In this document: positions 4,726 through 56,215 of the stretch, in pieces
How positions within the stretch are numbered: the first letter of the stretch is position 1
Layout: each line of letters opens with the position of its first letter
From: Dehalococcoidia bacterium
GTDB taxonomy: Bacteria; Chloroflexota; Dehalococcoidia; Lucifugimonadales; JAGWBF01
Length of the DNA: 64,000 bases
Assembly (NCBI GenBank): GCA_965197405.1
Contig: OZ240206.1
Coordinates: 1,820,920-1,884,919, forward strand
Direction: 5' to 3'
Notes under the pieces: model-generated
The model's input: only the letters and a program-made list of their open reading frames with translations
The model's database searches: none
What the model was told of the DNA's origin: nothing
Made by a program: the position numbers and the translations under genes

Positions 4726-4909
4726 CAGCGCCTTTCCATTCTCGGAAAATGTCGTTCCGAGCACCCCATCCCGTCATTCTGAGGAGCGAAGCGACGAAGA
4801 ATCTAAAGACCTTGACGGGAGAATCGGCCTTGACTTGCAAAAGGGATTTTAGACCCCTCACTCCGTTCGGGGTGACGATTAAAAGTGGGGTGACAATGGA
4901 AAGGCCCTC
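4726..4909. repeat. Family A MITE-like repeat with REP-like doublet
   Basis: Ends CAGCGCCTTTCCATT / AATGGAAAGGCCCTC; core GTCATTCTGAGG..GAAGAATCT and AGACCCCTC..GGGGTGAC. Confidence 0.65.
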
Positions 4910-4998
4910 CGAGAGTAGACGTCAACACGGCAGAAAAGATAAGCAAAGGCCTGTGACATAGGCTATAATGTCAGGAGTTTGTGCGACGGGGGGTGCGT

Positions 4999-5868
4999 AT
5001 GCCAGAGGCGCTGATAAACGGGGTGAAGCTTTATTACGAGGTAACCGGGCAGGGATTCCCACTGGTGTGGTGCCACGAGTTCGCCGGGGGACACGAGAGC
5101 TGGGAGCCCCAGGTGAGGTTCTTCTCCCGGCGCTACCAGGTCATCACCTACAACGCAAGGGGCTATCCCCCCTCCGAGGTCCCTTCCGACCCCGGAGCCT
5201 ACTCCCAGGAGCAGTCCATAGCCGACCTCCACGGCCTGCTCCGCCACCTTGGGATCCAGCAGGCGTATATCGGTGGACTCTCCATGGGCGGCAACGTAGC
5301 CCTGAACTTCGGCCTCACCCACCCGGAGATGGCCCGGGCCCTGATAGTGGCCGCCACAGGCTCCGGCTCCACCAATCCGGAGCAGTTCCAGCAAGACGGG
5401 ATGGAGATGGCCAGGCGTTTGGAGTCCGACGGGATGGAGGCCGTAGCCGAGGTGTACGCCCAGGGGCCCACGCGAGTCCAGCTTCTGAGAAAAGACCCCA
5501 GGGGCTGGGAGGAGTTCAAGCGGGGGCTTGTGTCCCACTCGGGTACAGGCTCGGCCCACGTCTTCCGGGGCGTCATACTGAGGCGGCGCACTATCTTCGC
5601 CCTGGAGGAGAGTCTCCAAGCCCTCGATGTGCCCACGCTAATCATGACGGGCGACGAGGACGAGCCTTGCATCGAGCCTGCCGTCTTTATGAAGCGCCAC
5701 ATTCCCAGGTCTGGCCTTGTGGTCTTTCCCCAGAGCGGCCACGCCATCAACCTGGAGGAGCCTGACCTGTTCAACCGCGCCGTGCTGGACTTCCTAACTG
5801 CCGTGGAGGCCGACCGGTGGGCGACGCGGGACACGACGGCAGGGGCGTGGTCCCTGCTGCCGAGATAG
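4999..5868 (+). CDS. Alpha/beta hydrolase
   Basis: GLSMGG nucleophile elbow, GDED, SGHAINLEEP. Confidence 0.9.
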   Translation: MPEALINGVKLYYEVTGQGFPLVWCHEFAGGHESWEPQVRFFSRRYQVITYNARGYPPSEVPSDPGAYSQEQSIADLHGLLRHLGIQQAYIGGLSMGGNVALNFGLTHPEMARALIVAATGSGSTNPEQFQQDGMEMARRLESDGMEAVAEVYAQGPTRVQLLRKDPRGWEEFKRGLVSHSGTGSAHVFRGVILRRRTIFALEESLQALDVPTLIMTGDEDEPCIEPAVFMKRHIPRSGLVVFPQSGHAINLEEPDLFNRAVLDFLTAVEADRWATRDTTAGAWSLLPR

Positions 5869-5893
5869 CCGTCAATAGCCAGGCCTGCTCTAA

Positions 5894-6808
5894 GAAACTA
5901 TCTCAAAATAGGATTGGTCTGAAAGGGAGAAAACGTAGGGGGTTCGGTTAAGATAGGGGAAACGCATGTGGTGGTGGATGATGGGAAAGAGCGAGACTCT
6001 GCCAACGATATGGGAAATATCCGATGGCCTGTGGGAGCGAATCGAACCCGTGATTTTGGAGTTGGACCCGCCCAAGGCGAAGGGGCGCAAAAGGGTGGAC
6101 CAGCGCAAGATGCTGGAAGGGGTCATCTTCCGTATGCGCAGTTCCTGCCAATGGAACCACTTGCCCAAGGAACTGGGGGATGACAGCACGATCCACCGGA
6201 CCTTCCAGCGTTGGGTAGAGCGTGGGGTACTGGATGGCATCTGGGCTGCCTTGATCGAAGAATGCCAGGAATTGGACGGCGTAAACTGGGAATGGCAGTC
6301 GGCCGATTGCTCCATGGGAAAAGCGCGTTTTGGGGGGGCGCCATTGGACGCAATCCCACGGACCGGGGCAAGGCTGGGAGCAAGAAGAGCATCCTGGTCG
6401 ACGGGGCGGGCGGGCCACTGAGCGTGGTGGTGGCCGGAGCCAATGTCCACGATACGAAACTCCTTAGGCCGACGCTGGAGAGCATAGTGGTGGACCGGCC
6501 GGAAGGGGTCCAAAACCTGTGCCTGGACAAGGGGTATGACAATCCCACCGGCCACGTGACCGTCGCCGACGCCGGATACCAGCCTCATATCCGGCGTATT
6601 GGCGAAGAGAAATTGGACCAATCGGGCGAGAAAACCCACCCGGCCCGGCGGTGGGTGGTGGAACGCACCCTGGGCTGGCTGTCCAAGTGCCGGGCGATAC
6701 TGGTGCGCTACGATAAGAAGCCCACCAATTACCTGGGCCTGCTTCAATTGGCTTGCGCCCTTATCTGGTACCGCCGCCTATGGAGCCTCGCTAATTTGAG
6801 ATAGTTAC
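5894..6808 (+). mobile_element. IS5-family element (915 bp), transposase split by -1 frameshift at TTTTGGGGGGG
   Basis: TIRs GAAACTATCTCAAA / TTTGAGATAGTTAC, TAA duplication; ORFs 5966-6421 and 6211-6804 with DKGYD and RWVVERT. Confidence 0.92.
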
Positions 6809-6847
6809 TAAGCAGACCTGCACTGATATTCTCAGGAGGGGTGAAGG

Positions 6848-8127: not shown

Positions 8128-8298
8128 GCATATGTTTCCAAATGCGTTGCCTTAGGGCCTCCTCTCCCTTGACGGGAGAGGATTGAGGTGAGGGTGGTGT
8201 GAAGGTGTCGGAACAACTCCCCCTCATCCCTCACGCTACGCTCAGGGCAGGCTCTAACCTTCTCCCGCTAGGGGAGAAGGCACTTTGGAAACGCCCTC
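8128..8298. repeat. MITE-like repeat with CCCCTCA-CCTAACC-TCTCCC hairpin doublet
   Basis: CCTCTCCC..GGGAGAGG..GGTGAGGG and CCCCTCATCC..AACCTTCTCCC..GGGAGAAGG; right end TTTGGAAACGCCCTC then TTA; left boundary approximate. Confidence 0.6.
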
Positions 8299-8301
8299 TT
8301 A

Positions 8302-9153
8302 GAGGGTGTGTGAGAAATCTTGGACATGTATTAGAATGGAGGTATGAAACGCAAACCATACCCCAGCGACCTGACCGACGAACAGTGGGATGTTCTGGCT
8401 TCCCTACTCCCATCAGCCAAGACTGGGGGAAGGCCACGTACTGTAGACCTACGGGAGGTCGTCAACGGCATTGTGTACGTTCTGCGCAACGGCTGCACGT
8501 GGCGAGCCATGCCGCATGACCTCCCGCCTTGGGGCACCGTGTGGTGGTATTTTCGGGAATGGAGACAGGATGGTACATGGGAACGAGTCCATGAGGCCCT
8601 GCGGCCCAAAGTTCGGAAGGCCGAAGGCAGCAACCCAACACCTAGCGCGGCCATCATAGACAGCGAGTCTGTTAAGACGACGGAAAAAGGGGGCCTCGTG
8701 GCTATGACGCTGGCAAGAAGGTCAACGGTCGAAAGCGACACATCATTGTAGATACCACGGGGTTGCTGCTGGCGGTGGTGGTGGTGCATCCTGCCAATAT
8801 CCAGGATAGAGATGGAGCGAAGCTGGTCATCGATAAATTGATAGGGCGGTTTCCCCGCATGAGGTTGGTCTGGGCCGATGCTGGCTATGCTGGAAAGCTG
8901 ATCGAGTGGGTCTGGGCCCTGACAGGCTGGGCGCTCGAGATTGTCAAGCGCCCCAGGGACAGCCACCACTTTCAGGTGCTGCCGCGAAGATGGGTGGTTG
9001 AACGAACATTCGCGTGGCTCAGCAGGTGCCGTCGGCTGAGCAAGGACTACGAAGCTCTGTCCGATACAACGGAGGCCTGGATCCACATAGCTATGATTCA
9101 TCTAATGCTCCGACGCTTAGCACCAACCTAATTTGAACTTATCACACACCCTC
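8302..9153 (+). mobile_element. IS5-family element (IS1031-like), transposase frameshifted at AAAAAGGGGG
   Basis: TIRs GAGGGTGTGTGAGAA / TTATCACACACCCTC, TTA on both sides; [41 protein letters not shown]. Confidence 0.92.
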
Positions 9154-9156: not shown

Positions 9157-10081
9157 GAAACTATCTCAAAACAGCAGTCGGTGCAGACGGCGGTACCAGA
9201 GCAGGGCGCACGCCAGTTGAATCAGGCCCACGTAGTTGGACACCTTTTTGTCATAGCGAACCAGAATCGCCCGGCACTTGGACGGCCAGGCCAAGGTGCG
9301 CTCCACCACCCACCGCCGGGCCGGATAGCGTTTCACCCCGCTGGCGTCCAGTTTCTCCTCCCCTATGCGTCGAATGTGCGCCCGGTATCCCCCGTCAGCC
9401 GCCGCGGCTCGGCCCGTGGGGTTGTCATATCCCTTATCCGGGCACAAGTTCTCTGGGGATTTCCCAGGACCGCCAGGGCGGGCCACGACGATGTCCTCCG
9501 GTGTCTGCCGCAGCAGCTTGGTGTCGTGAACGTTGGCTCCGGCAACCACCACGCTCAGGGGGCCTCCGCTCCCCTCAACCAGAACACTCCGCTTGCTGCC
9601 TGCCTTGGCCCGGTCCGTGGGGTTGGGGCCAATCGCGCCCCCCCAAACAGCGCTTTACCCATGGCGCAATCCGCCGACTGCCATTCCCAGTTCACCCCGC
9701 CCAACTCCTGGCATTCTTCAACCAGGACGGACCAGATTCTCTCCAGCACGCCCAACTCCACCCAGCGCTGGAAGGTCCGGTGGATGGTGCTGTCATCCCC
9801 CAATTCCTTCGGCAGGCGGTTCCACTGGCAGCCGCTGCGCATCCGGAAAATGATGCCCTCCAGCATCCGTCTGGGGGCCACGCGTTGGTGGCCCGTGGCC
9901 TTGGGCGGGTCCAATTCCAGAATTACGGGATGAATCTGCTCCCAGAGATGGCCCGGAATCTCCCAGATCGTCGCCAATGTCTCGGCCTTTCCCATCATCC
10001 ACCACCCTACTGTGTTTACCCCATCTTAACTCGGATGGTGCCCCTCGATCCCGTCTCTACGCCACAATTTGAGATAGTTAC
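9157..10081 (-). mobile_element. IS5-family element related to 5894-6808, possibly decayed
   Basis: TIRs GAAACTATCTCAAA / TTTGAGATAGTTAC, TTA on both sides; ORFs 9555-9998 and 9166-9552; G7 run at junction. Confidence 0.9.
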
Positions 10082-10101
10082 TTAGGCGCGCCCGTACAAG
10101 C

Positions 10102-11953: not shown

Positions 11954-13084
11954 TCAGCTGAGCCTGTGGACGGGGAATACCAGCTGCTTCAGCTGGTCAA
12001 CACTCTTTTCGGCGAAGCTCCTGGCCTCTCGACTCATGTCGTCCGGGACCGAGACGGGCATCCCGGCGTCCCGCAGCTGCTCCAACCCGTATTTCTCCCG
12101 GTGCAGGGGAGGAATCTCATCGGGCCATTCCCGACCCATCATTACCCCGTAAGCCAGAGTCCAGCACCGGGCCACCGCGCCCAGGTCGTACCCGCCCCCT
12201 CCCATAGCGAGCCAGGGCAGGCCCATCCGGGCGAACTCCCTCACCGCCTCGACAAAGCCCCGCGAGGACAGCAGCAGGTGAGTCAGAGGGTCACTGTAGT
12301 AGCTGTCAATGCCAAGCTGCGTGACCAGCACGTCGGGTTTGAAGGCTTGCACCAAGGGGGGCACTATCTCCCTGAAGGCCCAGAGGTAGGTGTCGTCATC
12401 CGTGTAGGGATAAAAGGGCAGGTTTACGGAGAACCCCCTGCCGGGACCGGAGCCTATCTCGTCCACGGAGCCTGTCCCAGGGAAGAGGAACCTGCCCGAT
12501 TCGTGGAGCGATACGGTCAGCACGCGCTCGGTGTCATAGAAGGCGTTCTGTACGCCGTCGCCGTGGTGAGCGTCAATGTCAACGTAGACGACCCTGAGAC
12601 CCTTGCCGAGGAGGTATTTTATGGCTACTGCCGGGTCGTTGAACACGCAGAAGCCGGAGGCGCTCCCGGCGGCGGCGTGATGCAGGCCGCCGGAGATGTT
12701 GAAGGCCACGTTAGCTCGCCCGCCGTCCACAAGCTCCGCCGCCACGAGGGTCGCCCCCGTGCTCAGGGCAGCAGCCTCGTACATGCCTTCGTATATGGGG
12801 TTATCCCCCCCCGCGCTGAAGTTGAACCTGGAGGAAGCGGGCACCCTTTCGCCGCGGCTAAAGCTCTTCACCGCCTCCACGTACTCGAGGTCGTGGAGGG
12901 CGCATATCTCCTCATCCGTTGCCGGCCTCGGCTCCACAAGGGTGGAGTTCTCTCCATCGAAGGCGTTGTAGGCTTCCAGAAGCTCATAGGTGTGCTGGAG
13001 TCGCACGGGCTTCATGGGGTGGTCGGACCTGAGGACGTGGCGGGAAAGGTCGTTGTTGTAAACAAAGGCGGCTTCTCTGTTCAT
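11954..13084 (-). CDS. acuC: AcuC / histone deacetylase family protein
   Basis: HPMKP-RL, GGLHHA, GFCVFND, DIDAHHGDG, FPGTG, GGGGY. Confidence 0.88.
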   Translation of the reverse strand: MNREAAFVYNNDLSRHVLRSDHPMKPVRLQHTYELLEAYNAFDGENSTLVEPRPATDEEICALHDLEYVEAVKSFSRGERVPASSRFNFSAGGDNPIYEGMYEAAALSTGATLVAAELVDGGRANVAFNISGGLHHAAAGSASGFCVFNDPAVAIKYLLGKGLRVVYVDIDAHHGDGVQNAFYDTERVLTVSLHESGRFLFPGTGSVDEIGSGPGRGFSVNLPFYPYTDDDTYLWAFREIVPPLVQAFKPDVLVTQLGIDSYYSDPLTHLLLSSRGFVEAVREFARMGLPWLAMGGGGYDLGAVARCWTLAYGVMMGREWPDEIPPLHREKYGLEQLRDAGMPVSVPDDMSREARSFAEKSVDQLKQLVFPVHRLS

Positions 13085-13560
13085 AGCTCTCCATTCCGAA
13101 GCTGGGCCAGGTCCCTGCGCATATTGGCCCAATGGCTGCCCGGCCAGTATATCTTGCGACAGAGGGGGCATTCCATAAACCCTTCCTGTGTCTCATAAAC
13201 GTAAGGAGGGACCTGCTCCTTCACTGACTCCCTCGAAATGTCCACCAGTGACTCGTTGCAGCGGATGCACCTGGAGAACTCCCTTGAGCTATCGAGGTTG
13301 AGGGAGCTGATTACCTGGCGAAGCTGGCCCTTCAAATCGTCGTGCTGGACCAGCACCGCCTTCAAACGGCCGGTGGTCACAAGGCGTCTCCCGGTGATGC
13401 CGCTGTCCCTGGTCACAATTATGCGGTCTTCTCGAAGGGCAATACGCACCAACTCGTTGTCTTCCATGTTGGACGGGAAGAGGGCATCGTAGCCCATAAC
13501 TCGCAGCCACTTGGCAAGCCTGCCAACATTCAGGTCTACGACAAATCTGGGCTCGTTCAT
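13081..13560 (-). CDS. Mut7-C RNase domain protein (PIN plus Zn ribbon)
   Basis: LAKWLR-MGYD, RI-VTRD, RCIRCN...CPLC-KIYWPGSH. Confidence 0.88.
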   Translation of the reverse strand: MNEPRFVVDLNVGRLAKWLRVMGYDALFPSNMEDNELVRIALREDRIIVTRDSGITGRRLVTTGRLKAVLVQHDDLKGQLRQVISSLNLDSSREFSRCIRCNESLVDISRESVKEQVPPYVYETQEGFMECPLCRKIYWPGSHWANMRRDLAQLRNGEL

Positions 13561-13877
13561 AGCTGCATGCAGGGTTGTTTCATTGTCACCCCGAGCGAAG
13601 CGAGGGGTCTAAAGACCTGGCTGGGCACGGTGAGCCGGGCCTCCTTGTTGAAGATGGGAAAGCGCAGCACCAGAAAGAGATAGTCGTCGTAGTCGTCCAC
13701 CTTGGGAAGCTGGACCCGGCTGAGGCAGTCATCGAGGGCGAGGGGATGAAAATCGTAGGTCCTCTTGAGGTACTCCATCTCCGCAAGGGTCGGCATCTCC
13801 ACGTCGAGCCAGGAGACGGACTCGTGTGCTATCTTCTTTACGCTAACTTGTTGTTGGGCCTGCCCCAGCGTAGTCAT
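13557..13877 (-). pseudogene. corA: Truncated CorA Mg/Co transporter (N-terminus only)
   Basis: WLD, FHPLALDDC...QLPKVDDYDDYLF; homology stops at the repeat 13570-13617; no GMN motif or TM helices. Confidence 0.8.
13570..13617. repeat. Half copy of family A MITE
   Basis: CAGGGTTGTTTCATTGTCACCCCGAGCGAAGCGAGGGGTCT matches reverse complement of the end at 53521. Confidence 0.75.
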
Positions 13878-14033
13878 AGTTTACCGGCTATCTATCGGAG
13901 AGATTCGAGGGACGGACGACACATGAACGCCAGCGTGTCTGCGCTAGTTGAGTCTAGTGAAATTCCGCCCGGCGGTCAAGGTGCACGCGTCCCTTCGCGT
14001 ATTCTGGAATACGCATATAGTATACTACTAGCA

Positions 14034-14190
14034 CAGGGGCTTCAATTCTCGACGCCAGATGAATACAGGCCCCCGCCGCGTGTCATTCCGAGCGCAGCGA
14101 GGAATCTAAAATGCTTGGATAGCAGCACGCCTAAGAAGGCAAGGACTTTAGACCCCTCGCTTCGCTCGGGGTGACAATCGAAAGGCCCTG
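14034..14190. mobile_element. Family A MITE
   Basis: Ends CAGGGGCTTCAATT / AATCGAAAGGCCCTG; flanks ACTACTAGCA / ACTGCTAGTG; close match to 28692-28872. Confidence 0.75.
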
Positions 14191-14241
14191 ACTGCTAGTG
14201 TGTCTCTGTTGGTATTGAATTTCTTTACTGAAGGAGGGTGC

Positions 14242-14616
14242 ATGACTACGGATGAGAAACAGGCGTACATAGAGAAGATTCAGAGGGAGCGGGGCTATGT
14301 GCTTGAGATGCACAGGATCATGGTGGAAGCGGACCTGGAATGGGTCAAAGCCTACGACCCCTTCATAGAGGCCAGCTACACGGGCCAGCGACTCCTCGAC
14401 CGCAAGACGAAGGAGCTACTACAGATTGCGGTGGAGTCGGCCCTGAGGGCGGACGTGGAGCAAATCCAGGCCCATGTGAGGGTGGCCCTGAACAACGGCG
14501 CCACGCCCCGGGAGATACTGGAGGCCCTGCAATCGGTGGTGATGCCTATGGGTATGCTGGCCTTCCGGCGGGGCCTCCAGGCCCTGGTCGCCGAGGTGGA
14601 CATCCAGGAGATATAG
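14242..14616 (+). CDS. Carboxymuconolactone decarboxylase (CMD/AhpD-like) protein
   Basis: LDRKTKELL...HVRVALNNGATPREILEAL; AGGAGG RBS. Confidence 0.85.
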   Translation: MTTDEKQAYIEKIQRERGYVLEMHRIMVEADLEWVKAYDPFIEASYTGQRLLDRKTKELLQIAVESALRADVEQIQAHVRVALNNGATPREILEALQSVVMPMGMLAFRRGLQALVAEVDIQEI

Positions 14617-14708
14617 ATACGGGGTAGATAAAGGACGCTCCGGCTGCCCATTCGCTCCTGACAAAAGCCAAGAGAAAGACTGGCCCGGGGTATAGGGGCC
14701 GGCCCCGT

Positions 14709-15491
14709 CTATTCCTCGGCCACGACATAGTTTCTGAGGGTGCCGATGCCGCTAATCTCCACCTCTATCACGTCCCCGGACGTCATGTTCTCCGTAGCGC
14801 CCTCGGTGCCCATCCACAGCACGTCGCCGGGATAGAGGGTTATGTACTTGCTAATCTCGCTGATGTAGGTTGCCGTATCGAAGATCATGGTCCCGGTGTT
14901 GAACTGGGAGATGGTCTTGCCGTTCAACCGTATGGTGGTCTCGAGGTCGGTCGGGTCCAGGCCGGTGGCGATCCAGGGACCCATAGGCTTGAAGGTGTCG
15001 GAGTTCTTGGCCCGCCACATGGTACGGTCATCCCGCTGCCAGGCGCGCTCGCTGATGTCGTTGCCTATGGTATAGCCCAGGACGCAACTCAGGGCATCCT
15101 CCTTCGATAGATGCTTGGCCTTCTTGCCGATAACGGCTACCAGCTCTCCCTCGTACTGGAACTCCCCCGAGGAGTCCTTGGGCATGATGATGTTCTCCTC
15201 GTGGGCTATGATGGCGTTTACAGCCCTGTACCCCACGTCCGCCTTCTTGGGTATGTTGGGCTGCGTACCCGCATGCTGCGCCGCCCAGGTGATATGCTCC
15301 GGGTAATTGATGCCTGCGGCATAGAATGTGGGCGGGATAACGGGCGCCAGCAGCTTCACCTCGCTCAGAGGATGGCTGGTGGAGGTCGCAGTATAGGTCG
15401 CGAAGGGACTGCCCGAGACCTCGGCCACTCTGTCCTCCTCTATTATCCCGTAGCTGACCTTTTGACCTGCCTGGAAGCGGCACCATTTCAT
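14709..15491 (-). CDS. Fumarylacetoacetate hydrolase family protein
   Basis: GINY-EH, YEGELVAVIGK, GYTIGNDIS, AKNSDTF, TLYPGDV. Confidence 0.92.
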   Translation of the reverse strand: MKWCRFQAGQKVSYGIIEEDRVAEVSGSPFATYTATSTSHPLSEVKLLAPVIPPTFYAAGINYPEHITWAAQHAGTQPNIPKKADVGYRAVNAIIAHEENIIMPKDSSGEFQYEGELVAVIGKKAKHLSKEDALSCVLGYTIGNDISERAWQRDDRTMWRAKNSDTFKPMGPWIATGLDPTDLETTIRLNGKTISQFNTGTMIFDTATYISEISKYITLYPGDVLWMGTEGATENMTSGDVIEVEISGIGTLRNYVVAEE

Positions 15492-15694
15492 AGTCTTTTC
15501 CTCTCTATCTGGTCTATCTGGCGAGTCCCGACGCGCAAGTTGGAAGCATTTCCCATTTTCACACTCAGCCCCCCTGCGGTCAAGCGGTGTGGCAGATAAC
15601 CAGCGCTTGACGGCCCTGGGAGGCGTCACTACAATTGCCCTCATCAGGCCCCCATCCGGCCCCGTCAGTCCCATCAGTGAGGAGGTGGCTTCAC

Positions 15695-16528
15695 ATGGCG
15701 ATCACCATAGGCATGGGCCAATACGTCTACGAGTATCACGGCGATTGGGCGCGACTCCCCCGGGGACAGAGCTTTCAGGTCCCCAGCGCAGTGGCCGTGG
15801 ACTCCCAGGATAGGGTATACGTGTTTCAGCGAAGCGGTCCGCCCGTCATGGTCTTCGACCGGGACGGGTACTTCCTGGACGCATGGCCCCGGCGCTCCGG
15901 AGAGTTGGAGGACGCCCATCACATCTACATCAGCCCTGACGACCACGTATTTCTTGCCGATAGGGACGCCCACCAGGTGTTGAAGTACACCACCGGGGGA
16001 GAGCTGCTGATGGCCCTTGGGACTCGTCACAGGGCCTCGCTGCAGGAGCCTTTCAACCACCCTGCCGATATAGCGGTCGCGCCTTCCGGAGACATATACG
16101 TCTCGGACGGCTACGGCAATTCCAGCGTGCACAGGTTCTCGCCGGACGGCACGTACATCTCCTCCTTCGGCAGCCCGGGCAGCGGCCCGGGGCAGTTCAA
16201 GGTCCCCCACAGCCTGCGCGTGTCCAGGGATGGCCGGGTGTTCGTGTGCGACCGGGAGAACGACCGCGTGCAGGTGTTCACCGGGGACGGCGAATACGTC
16301 ACCCAGTGGACGGACTTCAAAGGGCCGATGGGCATACACATTGACTCCAACCAGATTGCCTACGTCACCGACCAGGTCCCCCGCCTGAGCGTACTCAACC
16401 TCGATGGAGAGCTGCTGGCGCGGGGACGCACCTTCGAGTTCGGGCACAATGTGTACGGCGACTCCCGGGGGGACCTCTACGCCGTTGACGTGGCAAACCA
16501 GAGGCTACAGAAGTTCGCCAAGGTATAA
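15695..16528 (+). CDS. NHL-repeat beta-propeller (PAL-like) protein
   Basis: FNHPADIAV-PSGDIYVSDGYGN, GPGQFKVPH, DRENDRVQVF. Confidence 0.88.
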   Translation: MAITIGMGQYVYEYHGDWARLPRGQSFQVPSAVAVDSQDRVYVFQRSGPPVMVFDRDGYFLDAWPRRSGELEDAHHIYISPDDHVFLADRDAHQVLKYTTGGELLMALGTRHRASLQEPFNHPADIAVAPSGDIYVSDGYGNSSVHRFSPDGTYISSFGSPGSGPGQFKVPHSLRVSRDGRVFVCDRENDRVQVFTGDGEYVTQWTDFKGPMGIHIDSNQIAYVTDQVPRLSVLNLDGELLARGRTFEFGHNVYGDSRGDLYAVDVANQRLQKFAKV

Positions 16529-16589
16529 CGGCCAGGCGGGGGGCTTCGCCAAAGCAGGGCGGGTACGGCGGGTGTGCCCGCCGCGCGGT

Positions 16590-16895
16590 TCATAGGAAAT
16601 GCTAGTTGGCCTTCCCACCGTCACTCCCGCTTTCGCGGGAGTCCAGGGGCGGCGGGGACATGGATAGCCGTTCCCCGTTTGCACGGAGACAAGCTTCACG
16701 GGTATGACGAAGGGTATTTTCATGGTAATACAGGTCCCCATCGCACGTCATTCCGAACGGGGCACTTCGACAAGCTCAGGATAAACTGCACGGAGTGAGG
16801 AATATCAAGGGTAGGCTTATTCGAGAGCATGGATTTTTAGATTCCTCGCTGCGCTCGGAATGGCATCAGAGGGGTTGTAGGCTATTTTCATAGTG
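16590..16895. repeat. Composite repeat tract: two family C units ending ATTTTCAT
   Basis: ACTCCCGCTTTCGCGGGAGT unit like 25653-25792; second unit has the core also seen at 20050 and 37360. Confidence 0.65.
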
Positions 16896-17904: not shown

Positions 17905-17922
17905 CCCTGTCTTCCCCCAAGA

Positions 17923-18558: not shown

Positions 18559-18704
18559 GGATACCTCTCACGGGACACGCCGACCTGCTGGTGGAAGTCG
18601 TCATGAGGGGCGGCGGGTCCTGGCCTCACTACCGGCCCTCCCGGGCTGGTCCCTTCAACCATTGGCATTGGCAGCTTTGTCATGGGTCGTTAGCATTGTG
18701 GACT

Positions 18705-19334: not shown

Positions 19335-19408
19335 CGGTTCCCCTCCTTGGCTGAAAAATGGGGGCTGAAAAATGCGGAAGTCCCGTTGGGCGGAGACGCC
19401 GGGTGTGG

Positions 19409-22809: not shown

Positions 22810-22814
22810 GGGTG

Positions 22815-42933: not shown

Positions 42934-45384
42934 GTGAGAAAGATAATCGTAGCAATCAGACTGCCGTCGGGCGTAGGCCGCCTGAGTATTCTGGTACTGG
43001 CCGCCGGGCTGCTGGCCGCTGTGGCCTCCGGGTGCGGGTCTCAGCCGGGTGAAACGGACCGACCCGCACCCACGCCGGCCACGATAGCCGCGCCGTCTCC
43101 AACGCCTACGTCAGCTCCGACGCCCACCTTGGTCCCAACGCTCAGCCCGGTCCCGATAGCCACGGCAACGCCACCCCCAACGCCCACAGCGGCTCCGATG
43201 CCGACCCTGGCCCCAACGCCCACGCCGACACTCGCGGGCCAAGAACCCCACCCCACCGACCCTTACTTTGCTCTGGACCACGTTCTGGACATTGCCATTG
43301 AAATCCCGCAGGCGGACTGGGACACCCTGCGCCACCAGACCCGGACTTTAGAGGATGTATTCACGGAAATCGGATCCAACTGCCTGTCCCAGCCCTTTGC
43401 GGGCATCTACTCCTGGTTCCCGGCCCGGGTAACCGTGGATGACAAAACCTACGCCGAAGTCGGTGTTCGCAAAAAGGGGTTTGTCGGCTCCCAGAGCGAC
43501 ACCAAGCCCTCCCTCAAGATCCGATTCGACAAGTACGTAGAAGGCCAGACCCTGGGCGGCGTGCTGGAGCGGATGACCCTGAACAACGGCATCCAGGACC
43601 CTTCCCTGATTAACACCTGCCTGGCCTACCAGGTCTTTGCCGACGCCGGGCTGCCCGCGCCCCGGTGCAACTTCGCCACCGTATCGGTGAACAGCGAAAA
43701 TCTGGGCCTGTACGTCCACGTAGAGGACCTCAAGACCTCGATGGTGGCGCGCACTTTCGACAACGCCGAGGGCAACCTTTACGAGGGCACCGTCAGCGAT
43801 TTCCGCCCCGAATGGCGCGGCACCTTTGAAAAGAAGACCAACGAGGACGCCGCGGACTGGTCAGACATAGACGCCGTCGTCGTCGCCCTGCAAGACCCCT
43901 CCGAGGCCGGCTGGGAAGCCCTGAAAGCCGCCGTTGACTTGGACCGGTTCCTCTCCTTCTGGGCCACCGAAGTGCTGGTAGGCCATTGGGACAGCTATAC
44001 CGGCAACCGCAACAACTACCACTTTTACCGGGAACCCAACGGTCCCTTTGTGTTTATCCCCTGGGGCGTGGACGACGTTTTCCATCTGCGGGACGACCCC
44101 AATCCCTTTGACGACATCAGCAAGCCGCCGCCGTCGGTACTGGCCCACGGGGCCATCGCCCACCGTTTGTACCAGGATGCTGACGGGCGCGCGGCCTACA
44201 CCAGCCGCCTGCGGGACCTGCTGGATACGGTCTGGAACGAAGCCGAATTGCTCCAAAGCGCCGACGCAATGGCCGCCACCGTCCAGAAGTATGCATTGCC
44301 CGGAAAGCGGGCGGTCGCCGCCGCTGACGCCGAACGCGTGCGCCAGTTTATCGAAAAGCGGCGGGGGGAAATCCTGGACGACCTCACGCCGGAGCCGCCG
44401 GATTGGCCCTGGGCCCTGACCCCGAATCCCTGCGGTGCCGGCATCGGCGGGTTAATGGTCGAGTTTGAACCAGCCACCTTTGAGTTGCACTTCGAAACCG
44501 CTTGGGGAACGAATAAAAGCGCCAATCCCTTCGAGGCGGGGAAGGTTACTTATCTTCGCCTCAATGGGGCCGAGCAGCCCGACGCCGGCTGGGGCGTAAT
44601 CGCCGGCGTCGCCAGCCCGGAAGAAAAAGACCTCCTGCCAGGCACTGCTGAGGCGGCATCTCTCGCAATCCTCAGATTTAGACCCGACGGTTCCATCGAG
44701 GGTTTCACCCTGGTGATGTCCCCGGCCCGGCTGTCAGGAGGGGCCACCCTCGTCGTCGGTGAGGATGAGGTCGCCGGAGGGCGTTGGTCCATACCCGCCG
44801 GGGCCGCCGCGCCGGACCGGTTCTCCCCCTTCACCGAGGGCCGGCTGGAGTTGGACGCCGCCGGCGCGGGACCGGGCGCAACTATCTCAGGCCGCTTCTA
44901 CGGCGCTTGGGGTGGCACACCCCGGACGGATGCCGGAGGCCACGCGACGGAGCCGACCGGCACCGGAGACGCCGCCGGGCTGATTATCAACGAGGTAGCC
45001 GCCAAAGGGGACCCCCTCGACTGGCTTGAACTCTACAATGCTTCAGAGGACCACCTGGCCCTAGCTAACTTTGTCCTGGCTGACGACCTCAAGGATGCGG
45101 GCAAGCGGGTTGCTTTCCCCTCTGACCTGGTAATCCCGCCGGGCGGGTATCTGCAAATCCAGCTTGACAAAGACAAGTGGCCCGGCTTCGCCCTGGGCGG
45201 CGATGAGGAGTTGGGCATCTGGACGACCGATGGGGTCCTGGTGGACTCGGTGGATTGGGCCAAGGGCGAGGCTGACGCCGGGACCAGCTTCGCCCGCGTG
45301 CCGGACATCGAGGGAGACTTTCAGACTGTCAGTGACGCCACGCCGGGCGCTCCGAATCCAGCCAAACAGGAGGAGAGTCCATAG
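42934..45384 (+). CDS. Lipoprotein with Pro/Thr linker, CotH kinase domain and lamin-tail-like domain
   Basis: Lipobox-like ASGC; VGVRKKG, KPSLKI-FDK, LGLY--VE, WDSY--NRNNY, PWG-D; IINEV...DWLELYN. Confidence 0.82.
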   Translation: MRKIIVAIRLPSGVGRLSILVLAAGLLAAVASGCGSQPGETDRPAPTPATIAAPSPTPTSAPTPTLVPTLSPVPIATATPPPTPTAAPMPTLAPTPTPTLAGQEPHPTDPYFALDHVLDIAIEIPQADWDTLRHQTRTLEDVFTEIGSNCLSQPFAGIYSWFPARVTVDDKTYAEVGVRKKGFVGSQSDTKPSLKIRFDKYVEGQTLGGVLERMTLNNGIQDPSLINTCLAYQVFADAGLPAPRCNFATVSVNSENLGLYVHVEDLKTSMVARTFDNAEGNLYEGTVSDFRPEWRGTFEKKTNEDAADWSDIDAVVVALQDPSEAGWEALKAAVDLDRFLSFWATEVLVGHWDSYTGNRNNYHFYREPNGPFVFIPWGVDDVFHLRDDPNPFDDISKPPPSVLAHGAIAHRLYQDADGRAAYTSRLRDLLDTVWNEAELLQSADAMAATVQKYALPGKRAVAAADAERVRQFIEKRRGEILDDLTPEPPDWPWALTPNPCGAGIGGLMVEFEPATFELHFETAWGTNKSANPFEAGKVTYLRLNGAEQPDAGWGVIAGVASPEEKDLLPGTAEAASLAILRFRPDGSIEGFTLVMSPARLSGGATLVVGEDEVAGGRWSIPAGAAAPDRFSPFTEGRLELDAAGAGPGATISGRFYGAWGGTPRTDAGGHATEPTGTGDAAGLIINEVAAKGDPLDWLELYNASEDHLALANFVLADDLKDAGKRVAFPSDLVIPPGGYLQIQLDKDKWPGFALGGDEELGIWTTDGVLVDSVDWAKGEADAGTSFARVPDIEGDFQTVSDATPGAPNPAKQEESP

Positions 45385-47782: not shown

Positions 47783-47901
47783 TCATTGCCATGAAAATAC
47801 TTTTTGTCATACCCGCGAAAGCGGGTATCCGTGCCCCTGACGTTCCTAGACTCCCGCTTTCGCGGGAGTGGCGGTGGGGAAGTCCCGCCGTTATTTTCAT
47901 C
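47783..47901. repeat. Family C repeat
   Basis: ATGAAAAT...GTCATACCCGCGAAAGCGGGTATCC...GACTCCCGCTTTCGCGGGAGT...ATTTTCAT. Confidence 0.72.
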
Positions 47902-50594: not shown

Positions 50595-53132
50595 ATGAAA
50601 GGCACAGAGCATAAGGACGTCCGGCAGCTACACCTGCCGGTGGAAGGGATGACCTGCGCCGCCTGTGTAGCCCACGTCGAAGGCGCATTGAAGGAGGTCC
50701 GGGGCGTATCCTCGGTAAAGGTCAACCTGGCCACCGAGAAGGCTTTCCTGGAGCTGGATTCCGGCGCATCGCCCCTGGCTGAGCTGGTCGCGGCCGTGGA
50801 TGGGGTGGGCTACGCAGTACCCGTAGAGCGGGCGGGCCTGAACATCGGGGGGATGACCTGCGCCGCCTGTGTGTCCCACGTCCAGGACGCCCTTGGAAGC
50901 GTGGAAGGGGTCCTCTCCGTTAACGTGAACCTGGCTACGGAAAAAGCCGTCGTGGAGCACGTGCCGGGCGTCGCCTCTCTGCAAGACTTCCGGGAAGCCG
51001 TAGACGAGGCGGGCTATAGTGTCGAGGGCCTGGCCGACAAGGAATACGGCCAGAAGGAGGAGTTGGAACGCCTGGCCAGAGTGAAGGAAACGAGGACCCT
51101 CCGCAACAAGTTCGCCTTCGCCGCCGTTCTGGGTGCGGTCCTCTTCCTGGGCAGCTTCGACGGGTTCCCCTGGGTGTCTACCCTGATGGGCCGGACTTAC
51201 TACCCCTTCCTGCTGTGGGCACTGGCGACCCCGGTGCAGTTCTGGGCGGGGCGCATGTTCTACACCTCCGGCCTCGGCGCGCTGAGACACGGGGCGGCCA
51301 ACATGCACACCCTCATAGCCCTCGGCACCAGCGTAGCCTACTTCTACAGCGTGGCCGTCGTGCTCATCCGCACCTTCTCCCCTGAGACACTATCGGCCGG
51401 TGGGATAGGGGTCTCCGTATACTTCGACACCTCGGCAATCATCATCGCCCTCATACTCTTGGGGCGGTTCCTGGAAGCCCGCGCCAAGGGTCGTACCTCC
51501 GAGGCCATACGCCGCCTCATGGAGCTGAGGCCCGGCACCGCAAGGGTGGTCCGCGACGGCGAGGAGGTGGACCTGCCCGTTGACATGATAGCGTCCGGCG
51601 AGGTTATCGTCATGCGGCCCGGCGAAAAAGTGCCCGTGGACGGAGAGGTAATCCGGGGATACTCCACCATAGATGAGTCCATGCTGACGGGCGAGAGTAT
51701 GCCGGTGGAGAAGACCGTAGGCTCCCCCGTGTATGGGGCCACCACCAACAGGACTGGCGCGTTCCGGTTCCGGGCCACCAGGGTGGGCAAAGACACCGTT
51801 CTTGCCCAGATCATAGGGCTGGTTGAGGAGGCCCAGGGCTCTAGGGCCCCTATCCAGCGCCTGGCAGACGTGGTGTCCGCCTACTTTGTGCCCTCGGTCC
51901 TGGCGCTCTCGGTGGCAGCCCTCCTCTTCTGGCTCTTCCTGGGGCCGGAGCCTGCCCTGACCTACGGCCTCCTGGTCCTGGTGGCGGTGCTGATAATCGC
52001 CTGTCCCTGCGCCCTGGGGCTGGCCACTCCCACCGCCATCATGGTGGGCACCGGCATGGGAGCCGAGAAGGGAGTGCTCATCCGCAGCGCGGAGGCCCTG
52101 GAGATAGCCCACAAGACCGACGTGGTCGTCCTGGATAAAACGGGGACCCTTACCCTTGGCCGGCCCTCGGTAACGGACCTGATTCCCCTCTCAGGCAGTG
52201 AAGACGGACTCCTGAAGCTGGCGGCTTCCGCCGAGCTAGGCTCGGAGCACCCGCTGGGTGAGGCCATCGTGAGGCTGGCCCAGGAGCGCGGTATGAGCCT
52301 GGAAGAAGCGGAGGCTTTCGAGGCAATACCCGGCCGGGGAGTCCAGGCCACGGTGAGCGGCCGCACCGTTATTCTGGGCAACAGGGCGCTGATGGAGATG
52401 AAGGGCCTATACTTGGATGGCTTACCGGATGGCCTGGACAACGCGGCGAAGGGCCTGTCCGCCCAGGGAAAGACCCCCATGTACGTAGCCTCCGACGGGA
52501 AGATGCTGGGAGCCATCGCCGTATCCGACACCCTCAAGCCCGAAGCTGCGGAGGTGGTGTCCCGGCTCCACGACATGGGCTTGGAGGTCGTCATCCTGAC
52601 CGGCGACGGCCAAAGCGTTGCCGAGGCTGTAGCCAGGCAGGTGGGTGCAGACCGGGTTGTCGCTCAAGTGCTGCCACAGAGCAAGACCGACGCGGTAAAA
52701 GACCTCCAACGGCAGGGCAAGGTGGTCGCCATGGTGGGTGACGGCATCAACGATGCGCCCGCCCTGACCCAGGCGGACATAGGCATCGCTATGGGCACCG
52801 GCACCGACGTGGCTATGGAGTCGGCGGACATTACCCTTATGCGAGGAGACCTCAAGGGCGTGCCCACCGCCTTCCAACTCAGCCGCAGCACCATACGCAC
52901 GATAAAGCAAAACCTCTTTTGGGCCTTCTTCTACAACGTGGCCCTCATACCGGTGGCCGCCGGAGTGCTCTACCCCCTATTCGCGAACCTGGGAGGCGTC
53001 CCCTCCGGGTTGCACTTCTTCTTCGGCGACCTGGGCTTTCTAAACCCGGTGCTGGCGGCCCTGGCCATGGCCCTAAGCTCTGTAACCGTGGTAAGCAACT
53101 CCCTCAGACTGAGGGGGTTGAAGCTGACCTAG
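50595..53132 (+). CDS. copA: Copper-translocating P1B ATPase
   Basis: Two GMTCAAC domains, [31 protein letters not shown] and MALSS. Confidence 0.95.
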
Positions 53133-53325: not shown

Positions 53326-53331
53326 GACTCC

Positions 53332-53521
53332 CAGGTCGTTTCATTCCCCCTCCCTGTCGAGGCGACGCAGACGGGGACATTAGGTGAATACATGCCCCCA
53401 CCACTCGTCATTCTGAGGAGCAGAGCGACGAAGAATCTAAAATGCCTCGCAAGCAAAACGACACCCACGAAAAGGATTTTAGACCCCTCGCTTCGCTCGG
53501 GGTGACAATTAAACAACCCTG
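53332..53521. mobile_element. Family A MITE with flanking direct repeat
   Basis: Ends CAGGTCGTTTCATT / AATTAAACAACCCTG; GCTAGGACTCC at 53321-53331 and 53523-53533. Confidence 0.78.
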
Positions 53522-53974: not shown

Positions 53975-54051
53975 GGACCCGTGGTGTAGTGGCCTAACAT
54001 GCAGCCCTGTCAAGGCTGAGATCGCCGGTTCGAATCCGGTCGGGTCCGCCA
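53975..54051 (+). tRNA. tRNA-Asp(GTC)
   Basis: GGACCCG acceptor stem, CAGCC-CTGTCAA-GGCTG, GTTCGAATC, CCA end. Confidence 0.95.
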
Positions 54052-54101: not shown

Positions 54102-54452
54102 TCAGTCACGCGGTGGTGACTTGTGGAGCGTGACTTTTTCCTCCAACGCCTTTTTTCTCCATGTGTTTAAGATCATGCCGTCCTCTATAGATGCCAATGT
54201 GACCCGGCGGTGGAGATCAGGCCCTAAACGGAGGAGCATCTTACCCGAAAAGGGTTTCTGGGGTTCAATGCCTCGTTCTTTGCATAGAGCTAAATATTGA
54301 TCAATGGAGGTACGAAATTCGCGTTTCAGTCCTTCTACATCGGAGGCTTCAAAAGTGGCTACCGGGCTGGTCCCGGCGTTGACGACGCGCCCGTGCAACA
54401 AGTCTACAGATTCGTCATATTCGATAGCAGCGATGTAGCCCTTGTATTCCAT
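54102..54452 (-). CDS. hicB: HicB-family antitoxin
   Basis: MEYKGY...G-V...F...F--SID-YL--C---G-EP-KPFSGK--LR---LH. Confidence 0.88.
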   Translation of the reverse strand: MEYKGYIAAIEYDESVDLLHGRVVNAGTSPVATFEASDVEGLKREFRTSIDQYLALCKERGIEPQKPFSGKMLLRLGPDLHRRVTLASIEDGMILNTWRKKALEEKVTLHKSPPRD

Positions 54453-54896
54453 TATGGGATTACTCCTATTCCCGTTAAAAATCCTCTAATGTCTCTAAGA
54501 GGGTGTGTGGGAAGCAATTGCAGCCCATTCCTGTCATTCCGAACGGAGTGAGGAATCTAAAATGCTTGGGCAACAGCACGTCCAAGAAAGCAAGGATTTT
54601 AGACCCTTCGCTTCGCTCAGAGCCTGCCCCTGGCTTGAACAGGGGGTGACAGGTGACCGGTTTCGAGGACTTATTAAACACCCTCTAAGGGTGGCCCTGC
54701 CTACTTCGGGCCAGGGATGTGGCCGGTGCACGACCAGAGTTATAGATTGGGCTATGAGGTGGACCCGGGAACCCTCGGCCTCTGTGACCTCAACTCCTAC
54801 AGCCATCAGCAGGGACTCGATTTCGGCCCACCGGATGTTGGCTGGGGGCGGCCTGCTGAAGATGCTCTGTAGAGTTCGGCGGTGCCTACTCCTCAT
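54452..54896 (-). pseudogene. hicA: HicA-family toxin interrupted by a MITE
   Basis: TL--IF--P---NI-W--IE...GSRV...HRPHP; removing the insert gives ...ATLRDIRGFLTGIGVIP* with TAATG overlap to hicB. Confidence 0.88.
54499..54685. mobile_element. Family B MITE (187 bp), TAA duplication
   Basis: GAGGGTGTGTGGGAAG / CTTATTAAACACCCTC; TAA at 54496-98 and 54686-88. Confidence 0.88.
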
Positions 54897-55000
54897 GCCT
54901 CAGAGGTACTATAAACAGTACCTCTCGTCAAGCATCCCATGTGGAGATTTTTTGAGTGAAAGGCGGTCTCCGACAGCGTCGCCCTGCTCGAGTGGCGCCT

Positions 55001-55996
55001 CTACTGAGGCGCACAGGCGCGGATAACCTCCATAGCCTGCTTCTTGGCGTCCTTCCCCACCGCTCGCGGTGATATAATAGGCAGGGTGATACCCGCCCGC
55101 CGGTAGTCTTGCAGCCTCTCACGGCACTCGTCGGGCGAACCCACAATGCCAATCTTGTCAATCAGACCGGCGGGCACCAGGCTCATGGCCCGTTCTCTCT
55201 CCCCATTGGCCCACGCCTGTCGCACTGCCGCGATTTCATCCGGGAACCCGGCCTCCTCCATCAGCCTGCGATACCTGGGGAACTCGCCCGCATAGCTGGC
55301 AATGGCGAAGCGCATTCCCCTCCTGGCTTCCTCTTTTTCCTCGGACACGGTGCAGGGCAAGAGCGTCGCTACATCCACCTCTTCAGGACTCCTCCCTGCT
55401 CGCCCTGCTCCCAGGGCCACATGCTCCGCGGCGGTCCTGGCGTGCTCCACAGTGGTCCAGGTGAGTATTGTCCCCTGGGCTATTTCACCGCAAATCTCCA
55501 GCATCTTGGGGAACACTGCCGCCACATAGATGGGGATTTCCTTCCGGAGCGGCTCAAACCACAGGTCGAATCTCTCTATGTTATAGACGCTCCCCTGATA
55601 GGAGACCCCTCCATCATGCAACAGGGTGCGAACGATGTCCACGCACTCCCTCAGACGCTGCACGGGTTGGGAGAATACGAGGCCGTGCTCCGGCTCCACC
55701 TGTATTTTGTGGCTTGAGCCTACTCCCAGGATGAACCGGCCTCCCGAAAACTGGTCCACGCAGGCGGCGGCCATGGCGATGGTCGGAGCGCTGCGCACGA
55801 AGACGCTGGTGATACTCGTCCCCAGAAGGATTCTCTCGGTGGACGCGGCGCAGGCGGTCAGAGTCGAAAACTGGTCGCCGCCGTGTCCCTCGGCTACCCA
55901 GGCCGACTCGTAGCCCAGTTCCTCGGCGAGCCTCACGCACTCCACCACCTCCGCCGGCCCCAGGCCCCTTGAAAAACCTATACCGGTGCGTTCCAT
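55001..55996 (-). CDS. LLM-class flavin-dependent oxidoreductase
   Basis: AEELGYESAWVAE, ILLGTSI, SGGRFILGVG, IPIYVAA. Confidence 0.9.
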   Translation of the reverse strand: MERTGIGFSRGLGPAEVVECVRLAEELGYESAWVAEGHGGDQFSTLTACAASTERILLGTSITSVFVRSAPTIAMAAACVDQFSGGRFILGVGSSHKIQVEPEHGLVFSQPVQRLRECVDIVRTLLHDGGVSYQGSVYNIERFDLWFEPLRKEIPIYVAAVFPKMLEICGEIAQGTILTWTTVEHARTAAEHVALGAGRAGRSPEEVDVATLLPCTVSEEKEEARRGMRFAIASYAGEFPRYRRLMEEAGFPDEIAAVRQAWANGERERAMSLVPAGLIDKIGIVGSPDECRERLQDYRRAGITLPIISPRAVGKDAKKQAMEVIRACAPQ

Positions 55997-56027
55997 ATCG
56001 GCCTCCTCCGTAGTATAGACTGGTCTC

Positions 56028-56215
56028 CAGGGTCATTTAACTGTCAATCTGCGGGGCACTTCTTGGTCATTCCGAACGCAGCGAAGCGGAGTGAGGAATC
56101 TCAAATGACGCCTAACAAAAGCCGGAATCAAGGCAATACAGGCTAGGCCAAGACCGTGACCAGACAGGACTTTAGACCCCCCCGCCCCGCTCGGGGTGAC
56201 AATTGAAAGTACGCA
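56028..56215. repeat. Degenerate family A MITE
   Basis: CAGGGTCATTTAACT start, REP-like doublet, GGGGTGACAATTGAAAG; flanks GACTGGTCTC / GGCTGGTCTT. Confidence 0.6.

Follow-up and report, generated by a model that had tools for sequence, protein, structure and literature searches.

The window analysed here is a stretch of 64,000 nucleotides from a Dehalococcoidia bacterium (assembly GCA_965197405.1, contig OZ240206.1, positions 1,820,920 to 1,884,919). It is part of the single contig of 3,377,400 bases (60.6% G+C) that makes up the genome, about 7.5% of which lies within 15-mers occurring at least four times. A first-pass annotation of the window had pointed to palindrome doublets, similar to repetitive extragenic palindromes (REPs), that contain one of two cores, core 1 or core 2, and lie inside the ends of different miniature transposable elements with inverted repeats (MITEs). 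We found the listed motifs and elements at their places and observed that the dimer cores are indeed common to elements with different ends. The palindromes are copies of a single structured unit of 26 nt, (C/T)GTC-AYYCC-GA-GCGNAGC-GA-GGRRT-CT, hereafter the G·A-type hairpin. With a strict pattern we counted 384 copies genome-wide, 12 of them in the window, and a tolerant scan raised the number to about 616 units, including forms of 32, 36 and 57-60 nt that differ solely by added loop sequence. In the window, the degenerate pattern of the 26-nt hairpin gave 11 matches against none in 100 shuffles, and GTCATTCCGA, with at most one mismatch, gave 14 matches where 3.5 were expected. The exact 26-mer is present in 266 copies in this genome, against 1-18 in relatives.

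The stem has nine positions, two of them being G·A and A·G oppositions, and the loop is either 3 nt (GNA) or a long insert. Across the 333 units of 26 nt, the GNA loop stays fixed, as do the two opposed positions (G·A in 325, A·G in 329); pair one is A-T in 324, pair two is T-A in 183 and C-G in 150, and the tag GTC is present in 317. Among the 616 units, 469 have a T and 93 a C immediately 5' of GTC. In a scan without forced complementarity (n = 293), the pairs covary: 5-23 is T-A in 157 units and C-G in 134, 6-22 is T-A in 151 and C-G in 131, and 11-17 is G-C in 245 and A-T in 39, each of the five tested pairs being paired in at least 286 units. A DNA energy model gives the expected hairpin shape, and the whole 157-bp element at 14034-14190 folds as single-stranded DNA (ssDNA) far better than its shuffles (z -5.8). 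A hammerhead-like reading of the CTGATG-GTCA stretch was rejected by eye, the GAAA core being absent.

When neighbouring units no more than 160 bp apart were paired, 208 of 216 pairs proved to be convergent head-to-head dimers whose GTC tags lie on the outer sides. By their spacers, the dimers can be sorted into nine classes, namely a 71-nt class 0 (55 copies), core 1 (45), core 2 (39) and six smaller ones. Several classes look like diverged subfamilies because they are equal in length and have a common frame, AAAAT...GGAYTTT; core 2 is different.

In the window, core 1 lies at 14082-14175 (hairpins 14082-14107, plus strand, and 14150-14175, minus strand) inside the 157-bp CAGGG...CCCTG element at 14034-14190 (plus strand), whose 10-bp flanks ACTACTAGCA and ACTGCTAGTG are alike at 7 of 10 positions. 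It is found again at 28740-28857 inside the element 28692-28872 (plus strand; flanks TCCCGCTAGC and TCCCACTAGC, 9/10 alike), and a third time inside the 187-bp element GAGGGTGT...ACACCCTC at 54499-54685 (plus strand), which has TAA on both sides and four relatives of near-identical length. Core 2 stands behind a CAGGG end at 19982, where the left end and arm are followed by the dimer (hairpins 20051-20086, plus, and 20120-20145, minus) and by a different right arm (19982-20234, plus strand); in this element the right terminal inverted repeat (TIR) is absent and a tRNA gene comes next at 20287. It also stands behind a GAGGGTGT end at 37275 (37275-37488, plus strand; left end GAGGGTGTTTAACAA; hairpins 37361-37396, plus, and 37429-37454, minus), the degenerate right end ...AGCACCCAC being followed by TTA. 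Finally, core 2 precedes ...TATTTTCAT at 16747-16891, within a mosaic (16612-16891) composed of a pair of hairpins resembling the NTS of Neisseria (NTS-like hairpins), a junction motif, TATTTTCATGGTAAT (16715-16729), and the core 2 dimer (16747-16864), whose left hairpin loop contains an insert of about 32 nt; the mosaic terminates with ...TATTTTCAT.

The CAGGG ends match those of a resident insertion sequence (IS) of the ISAs1 family, a family whose ends, as known from ISfinder, read CAGGG and which makes duplications of 8-10 bp. Full-length relatives of the 157-bp element number 61 in the genome, of which 47 reach at least 89.8% identity; 10-bp direct duplications are seen in their flanks, and among all CAGGG...CCCTG pairs shorter than 250 bp, 62 of 119 have flanks alike at 8 or more of 10 positions. 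Its 15-bp TIR, CAGGGTCTTTTAATT, is identical to that of a 1188-bp IS which has a perfect 10-bp duplication and carries DDE_Tnp_1_assoc (PF13808) and DDE_Tnp_1 (PF01609), the ISAs1 signature; beyond the TIR, the MITE interior and this IS have nothing in common. A second ISAs1-like IS of 1243 bp is present in 10 copies, with an open reading frame (ORF) of 406 amino acids (aa), the TIR CAGGGCTATCGCATTTG and 10-bp duplications, and PF13808 gave 25 matches in the genome, one of them in a 424-aa open frame. With the TIR of a resident IS, a duplication of the family length, no ORF and 61 copies, the 157-bp-type elements have the features of an ISAs1-derived MITE. The duplications of about 10 bp that had been ascribed to the CAGGG elements at 28692 and 14034 are alike at 9/10 and 7/10 positions. 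The degenerate ISAs1-type MITE at 4726-4909 has no duplication, its flanks being alike at 1 of 10 positions; this element contains a dimer of 32-nt (4773-4804, plus) and 26-nt (4851-4876, minus) hairpins with a class 6 spacer.

The GAGGGTGT ends were matched in the same way to a resident IS of the IS5 family. This IS of 852 bp is present in 4 copies, carries DUF4096 and DDE_Tnp_1, and has the ends GAGGGTGTGTGAGAA and GAGGGTGTGTGATAA with TTA or TAA flanks; the window copy, at 8302-9153 (plus strand), is flanked by TTA. Fifteen short elements share both ends of this parent IS, with flanks that are mostly TAA, TTA or TCA; 3 bp is the usual length of the target duplication in the IS5 family. Five of the fifteen have core 1 (three measure 187 bp, the others 186 and 163 bp), a single one of 219 bp has core 2, which the window copy at 37275 also contains, and nine elements of 79-158 bp carry an unrelated palindromic cargo of the …CCCTCTCCC…GGGAGAGGG… type. 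Copies of the 187-bp type are flanked by TAA/TAA in three cases and TTA/TTA in one, as expected of an IS5-derived MITE. A further IS5-like end type, TAGGGCGTGTTCAC, which resembles the ends of an 820-bp IS5-type IS, bounds five elements of 231-234 bp; three of the five sit at a TA directly 3' of the tail of a hairpin in another dimer and are therefore truly nested.

Ends and cores assort independently in the contingency tables, since the same cores occur in different ends and the same ends enclose different cores. ISAs1-type ends on both sides flank eight of the nine spacer classes, with 29 dimers of class 0, 37 of class 1 and fewer of classes 2, 3, 4, 5, 6 and 8. Core 2 has TATTTTCAT on both sides in 10 dimers, an ISAs1 left end with TATTTTCAT on the right in 7, ISAs1 ends on both sides in 2 and IS5 ends in 1-2. 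These counts are too low for dimers in which an insert splits a hairpin, such as those at 28692 and 54499.

At least three mobiliser types had been proposed for these elements. Two were identified, the ISAs1 family with its 10-bp duplications and the IS5 family with its TNA duplications, but the third supposed end, ATTTTCAT, is not a terminus. It is part of the 15-nt junction motif TATTTTCATGGTAAT, of which the genome has 153 copies (at most two mismatches), chance accounting, by our rough estimate, for fewer than 10. Hairpin modules of at least six different kinds are found before the motif, and what comes after it is either unique DNA or another module. Next to a gene that we call ssn#2 (see below), it runs directly into the start codon, with a partial inverted copy 3' of the stop, and its complement lies 27 nt before the upstream hairpin of another gene, ssn#1. 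Based on crude gene calls, 30 of the 153 copies point toward a gene start within 100 nt, against 4 in the reverse orientation. We read the motif as probably a cassette-flank or leader motif, and it may be a portable leader or promoter. As a promoter, the motif fits the sigma-70 hexamers poorly when judged by eye, with no promoter scan behind that judgement, and we retain the orientation bias only. In the window, the motif is present at 16715-16729, at 25775-25789 in a second mosaic (25592-25830, with a degenerate hairpin at 25597-25622 and NTS-like hairpins), and at 47785-47799 beside an NTS-like hairpin (47805-47832; feature 47784-47870).

Micro-elements nested within hairpins, also claimed initially, were confirmed. 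The 26-nt sequence CCCCCTGTTCAAGCCAGGGGCAGGCT interrupts the right hairpin at 28828-28853 and again at 54621-54646, the loop insert at 16760-16791 is of about 32 nt, and a 10-nt insert of the GCGAAGC type converts 26-nt hairpins to the 36-nt forms. Genome-wide, the micro-element CCCCTG-N(5-9)-CAGGGGCAGGCT is present in 115 copies; at least 49 of them lie directly after the tag in G·A-type hairpins and at least 11 in NTS-like hairpins, and this position just after the tag is fixed in at least four hairpin families. The micro-element is also found inside the 1243-bp ISAs1-like IS (13 copies). Judged from the sequences, it would have arrived either by insertion or by conversion copying. We also observed that this IS (1296117-1297346 of the contig, G000:C1, and 9 other copies) contains the hairpin-splitting micro-element in the form CCCCCG…CGGGGGCAGGCT.

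A protein partner for the hairpins is suggested by genes of the Ssn type. In Neisseria, the NTS is bound as ssDNA and cut a few nucleotides upstream by SsnA, a GIY-YIG nuclease of 94 aa, whose action depends on the 3 nt that precede the palindrome and on the C that follows it, and whose target loop tolerates extensions; SsnA binds ssDNA only, RNA not being bound, and in many bacteria the ssnA gene is flanked by hairpins (NTS-ssnA-NTS), according to the text of PMC11893778. In this genome, ssn#1 is a single-domain ORF of 96 aa (G000:C1:1738567-1738857), about 82 kb before the window, with 45.9 bits against PF01541; a G·A-type hairpin lies 40 nt upstream, an inverted one overlaps its stop codon, and the tags point outward. 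Its 95-aa paralogue encoded by ssn#2 lies among NTS-like hairpins (PF01541, 55.7 bits). PF01541 covers most of each protein, and 2585 homologues of 52-168 aa were found; no NCBIfam family scored above its cut-off for either protein and no solved structure matched them by sequence. When the protein was used as query, homologues were found in 24 of 40 relatives of the same order and in all five tested genomes of other phyla.

Tagged hairpins stand on both sides of 19 of 28 Ssn loci inspected in the relatives and the genomes of other phyla, on one side of 5 and on neither side of 4; the detector used for this count had no formal false-positive control, and the sequences are plainly of the tagged hairpin families. 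In a tree of 26 Ssn proteins, eight flanked by NTS-like hairpins and one unflanked form a clade (100/100), outside which the G·A-flanked proteins fall. The hairpin labels require 4 changes on this tree, against 10.6 in shuffles, and none of 200 shuffles was as low; because the rows include relatives, the tree shows clustering and not independent co-evolution. From this linkage we infer that the ssn#1 protein probably binds and cuts the G·A-type hairpin.

The link between dimers and the gene is closest in class 7. In six dimers of this class, a 44-nt leader and the initial codons of ssn#1 are kept together with the final ~13 nt of the gene and an identical downstream hairpin with the bases that follow. 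Because leader, gene start, gene end and downstream hairpin are all kept, these dimers are ssn cassettes with the gene deleted; all six are enclosed by another IS5-like TIR pair. As for the cassette of ssn#1, a CAGGG arm bounds it on the left and a ...CCCTG end on the right, and the flanks are 9/10 alike.

The hairpin and its elements extend beyond this genome. It is present in 14 of the 40 relatives, MITE or dimer DNA matches 15 of them, and a complete MITE copy with both TIRs and an 8/10 duplication was found in another genus of the same family. With the loop base left free, the exact 26-mer occurs in at least 120 contigs from many phyla; among the matches listed are Acidobacteriota, Planctomycetota, Bacteroidota (including a Hymenobacter isolate), several proteobacterial classes, Gemmatimonadota, Nitrospirota, Verrucomicrobiota and Chloroflexota, as well as one bin of a candidate-phylum (Roizmanbacteria) bacterium and one Nanoarchaeota bin. 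The exact hairpin in these last two bins (L022 and L048) could reflect transfer or mis-binned contigs. One contig from the scan is not close to this genome, matching it at only 75-77% over about 1.1-1.3 kb (loci L016 and L040).

Taking these observations together, we consider it probable that the doublets are dimers of Ssn-target hairpins which were amplified as cargo of ISAs1- and IS5-type MITEs mobilised by DDE transposases, some of them being ssn cassettes without the gene. The hairpins would be a tandem-G·A subclass of the (C/T)GTC-tagged REPs, that is, of the 'Ssn-related motifs' (SRMs) that GIY-YIG Ssn nucleases recognise, and the dimers look like ssn cassettes that have lost their gene. 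They would have multiplied mainly as the interior of MITEs of which only the TIRs are IS-derived, and the resident ISAs1-type (10-bp duplication) and IS5-type (TNA) DDE transposases would move these MITEs in trans. The mosaic structure would come from divergence of the spacers into subfamilies, from nested insertion (a MITE in a dimer, an IS in a MITE, a micro-element in a hairpin) and from exchange of hairpin-bounded segments between elements, perhaps via repair of Ssn nicks on exposed single strands.

Several observations weigh against this account. Not one of 514 G·A-type units fits the SRM pattern as published; the 131 genome sites of this pattern (38.8 per Mb against 15.3 in three mononucleotide shuffles) all belong to NTS-like families. 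With the DNA energy model, single hairpins fold no better than shuffles (z -0.06 to -1.08), and we accept the pairing because of the covariation, not because of the energy. Among the 208 dimers, 18 have no known end in the 140 bp to their left or right, and for more than 50 an ISAs1- or IS5-type end is present at just one of the two flanks; simple transposition leaves these cases unexplained. A recognisable duplication is kept in only 62 of the 119 CAGGG TIR pairs, and the transposase of the 1188-bp IS is split into two overlapping frames in all three copies read. The link between MITEs and resident ISAs1 domains is weak among relatives (6 of the 15 with MITE or dimer DNA, against 4 of the 25 without). 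The CAGGG...CCCTG bracket around ssn#1 is a single locus, and because its right arm is nearly single-copy (about two copies) we take it as a hint only. Finally, no empty site or insertion polymorphism was seen among the listed joints in four public runs, whose contigs break at repeats. Two contigs of one run (X4) enter the MITE at 14034 from opposite sides; the public-run contigs bear neither way on current mobility.

The alternative that survives best, though we regard it as unlikely, is that the Ssn nuclease itself moves the dimers: SRM-ssn-SRM would be a selfish, IS-like or homing-type cassette with the dimers as non-autonomous forms, and the IS-type ends would be secondary passengers or have been captured later. 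PMC11893778 notes that SRM-ssn-SRM is built like an IS, and both the six deletion derivatives and the 18 dimers that lack an IS-type end fit such a cassette. The contexts in other phyla agree with it, since the hairpins there are mostly dimers whose flanks and spacers are unconserved (flank information about 0 bits): in 58 of 126 contexts the tail side has an inverted tagged partner no more than 150 nt away, against 7 of 126 for a same-sense unit on the tag side as control. So does the fixed position of the micro-element after the tag in at least four hairpin families. However, most dimers here carry DDE-type TIRs with duplications of the matching length, and the six derivatives are themselves inside another IS5-like TIR pair. 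We know of no strand-transfer activity in a single-domain GIY-YIG nuclease. The text of PMC11893778, as far as it was available, reports no mobility data. Movement by Ssn is also compatible with amplification as MITE cargo.

A related proposal, speculative and in our view rather improbable, is that Ssn and its hairpins form a self-propagating system, in which nicks made next to hairpins on exposed single strands, once repaired from other hairpin loci, would copy hairpin-bounded modules into elements that already hold a hairpin. If true, it would explain the same cores across MITEs of unrelated IS families, the fixed position of the micro-element and the identical 26-mers across phyla, and the transposon ends would become interchangeable vehicles of a nuclease-driven module. 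Returning to the preferred explanation, cargo of DDE-mobilised MITEs, the best-supported account makes the system a variation on known kinds and not a new category, with Ssn-driven copying a live and non-exclusive alternative to it.

It is quite improbable that the hairpins are selected host regulatory elements (terminators, mRNA stabilisers, promoter or leader modules) and the mosaic a by-product. Their strongly intergenic location would fit such a role, as crude ORF calls that make 84% of the genome coding place only 114 of 616 units in ORFs, and so would the orientation of the junction motif toward gene starts (30/153 against 4/153) and the sponge metatranscriptome contigs, which contain parts of the window stretch. 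Against it, no T-run follows the hairpins 3', and an Rfam scan of the window at gathering thresholds found three tRNAs only and no family on the hairpins. Convergent gene pairs are not favoured by the dimers (30 of 185, compared with 512 of 2646 spaces), and the duplications and IS-type TIRs show transposition. Furthermore, SsnA does not bind RNA (PMC11893778). A secondary regulatory co-option of some hairpins is possible. That the doublets are instead REP doublets forming hairpins (REPINs), copied by a REP-associated tyrosine transposase (RAYT), deserves next to no credence: inverted hairpin pairs, a conserved unpaired tag and a spacer look alike, and all five tested hairpin genomes of other phyla encode Y1 transposases, but the tag is (C/T)GTC and not GTAG, PF01797 (Y1/RAYT) was found in none of 41 genomes of the order, this one, its 40 relatives and 15 with the hairpin included (6 of 14 control genomes responded), and the hairpin lies beside none of the best 8 of 35 Y1 matches in other phyla. 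In this sense, the term 'REP-like' used in the first-pass annotation does not apply.

The hairpins are of a known type, fitting the CGTC/TGTC-tagged REP superfamily and being probable Ssn targets. The superfamily tagged CGTC, often TGTC, occurs in several phyla, mostly as head-to-head dimers and with no transposase of its own (PMC3733652). As in that source, the hairpins here have an unpaired CGTC/TGTC tag and a short conserved 3' tail, and the stem, of about nine positions starting with A·T, is partly alike; head-to-head dimers predominate, spacers are of several types, no transposase gene adjoins them and they are found in many phyla, and some of the published dimers also lie within longer palindromes or mosaic intergenic regions. 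In contrast to the CGTC repeats, the stem here (8-9 bp in the published ones) contains the tandem G·A/A·G, the loop consists of GNA (3 nt) or of a long insert instead of 4-5 nt, and the tail is CTA instead of CCA. The text of PMC3733652, as far as available, describes no CGTC repeats from Chloroflexi or Acidobacteria and does not link dimers to IS-type TIRs or duplications.

The NTS/SRM-Ssn system (PMC11893778) likewise combines a single-domain GIY-YIG gene of about 95 aa with tagged hairpins at either flank, a palindrome preceded by GTC and followed by C, an insert-tolerant loop and hundreds of copies, and the second hairpin family of this genome fits its SRM pattern (131 matches), as does the NTS-like hairpin at 47805-47832. 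Unlike it, the dominant hairpin here is off the pattern (0/514) and goes with a distinct protein group; the main text of PMC11893778 makes no mention of MITEs, Chloroflexi, Acidobacteria or Bacteroid*, and its supplementary tables may list such genomes. The REPIN-RAYT system (PMC3116915, PMC3337134) shares the two inverted REP hairpins with a spacer as a non-autonomous unit and the linked, single-copy gene flanked by hairpins, and differs in that here there is neither a GTAG tag nor a Y1 (HUH) transposase, the linked gene being a GIY-YIG nuclease.

Bacterial MITEs that share only the TIRs with their parent IS are a known type, to which the elements here correspond in being of 150-190 bp, non-coding and multicopy, with a duplication of the family length. 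Their interior differs in being a dimer of nuclease-target hairpins that is not IS-derived and recurs across IS families. The mosaic structure resembles the bacterial interspersed mosaic elements (BIMEs) of E. coli, which are combinatorial arrays of oriented palindromic units with a small set of linker motifs. The Neisseria mosaic intergenic repeat arrays, as mentioned in PMC3733652, are also combinatorial arrays of oriented palindromes with linker motifs. With respect to both, the hairpin family and the partner protein are others here, and transposon ends with a duplicated target delimit some of the mosaic.

The description 'undescribed system' used initially was therefore too strong, since the repeats fit the tagged REP superfamily (PMC3733652) and the Ssn/hairpin pairing (PMC11893778), as far as these texts go. 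Within the literature searched, three points are apparently new: a subclass of hairpins with a tandem G·A, present in many phyla yet missed by the published motif, hairpin dimers carried in MITEs of several DDE IS lineages, and dimers as deletion derivatives of an ssn cassette. Hairpin 11-mers gave only unrelated primer matches in a literature sequence search, and a keyword search on Ssn and CGTC repeats returned no later paper tying either to MITEs. How CGTC REPs or NTS/SRM hairpins reach hundreds of copies without a transposase of their own is posed as an open question in the texts of both PMC3733652 and PMC11893778; this genome offers a concrete and testable route, hairpin dimers as the interior of ISAs1- and IS5-ended MITEs. 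Because the published pattern misses the G·A/GNA subclass, censuses of Ssn targets are probably undercounts. The G·A-type hairpin and its Ssn group would be a second candidate nuclease-target pair for the ssDNA-cutting uses proposed in PMC11893778.

The window contains further repeats. A minimal element at 13570-13623 (plus strand) has a lone 26-nt hairpin (13585-13610) between a CAGGG-type repeat and AAAGACCTG. At 22594-22790 (minus strand), an ISAs1-type end accompanies a dimer (hairpins 22609-22634, plus, and 22706-22741, minus) with the 71-nt class 0 spacer, its far arm containing an additional small palindrome and a decayed end. Two further ISAs1-type MITEs lie on the plus strand, one at 53331-53521 with hairpins of 32 nt (53407-53438) and 26 nt (53481-53506) and a class 3 spacer, the other at 56028-56209 with hairpins of 36 nt (56066-56101) and 27 nt (56174-56200), a long spacer and CTGGTCT on both flanks. 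An IS5-family IS of 923 bp, with 22 full copies in the genome and DUF4096 and DDE_Tnp_1 in two frames (seen on copy L013), is present three times, at 5890-6812 (plus strand), at 9157-10085 (minus strand), inserted beside the 852-bp IS, and at 58784-59708 (minus strand). An IS630-family IS (1264 bp, DDE_3, 6 copies, TA flanks) ends at the window start (1-133) and occupies five other genome sites; its ends match no hairpin-carrying element.

In the region 13001-23000, the depth of repeat-containing bins in public runs (X1-X5) from host-associated metagenomes is 100-400 times that of the adjacent unique DNA; other organisms in these samples probably carry the same hairpins. The unrelated palindromic family …CCCTCTCCC…GGGAGAGGG… is present in the window at 8146-8300 and 32982-33076 and has 56 clustered copies genome-wide. 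The three tRNA genes are located at 20287-20360, 27413-27485 and 53975-54048, two of them within 450 bp of hairpin elements (19982-20234 and 54499-54685). Ordinary genes stand among the repeats, such as those for a CotH kinase-like protein with a lamin-tail domain (42934-45384) and a heavy-metal P-type ATPase (50595-53132).

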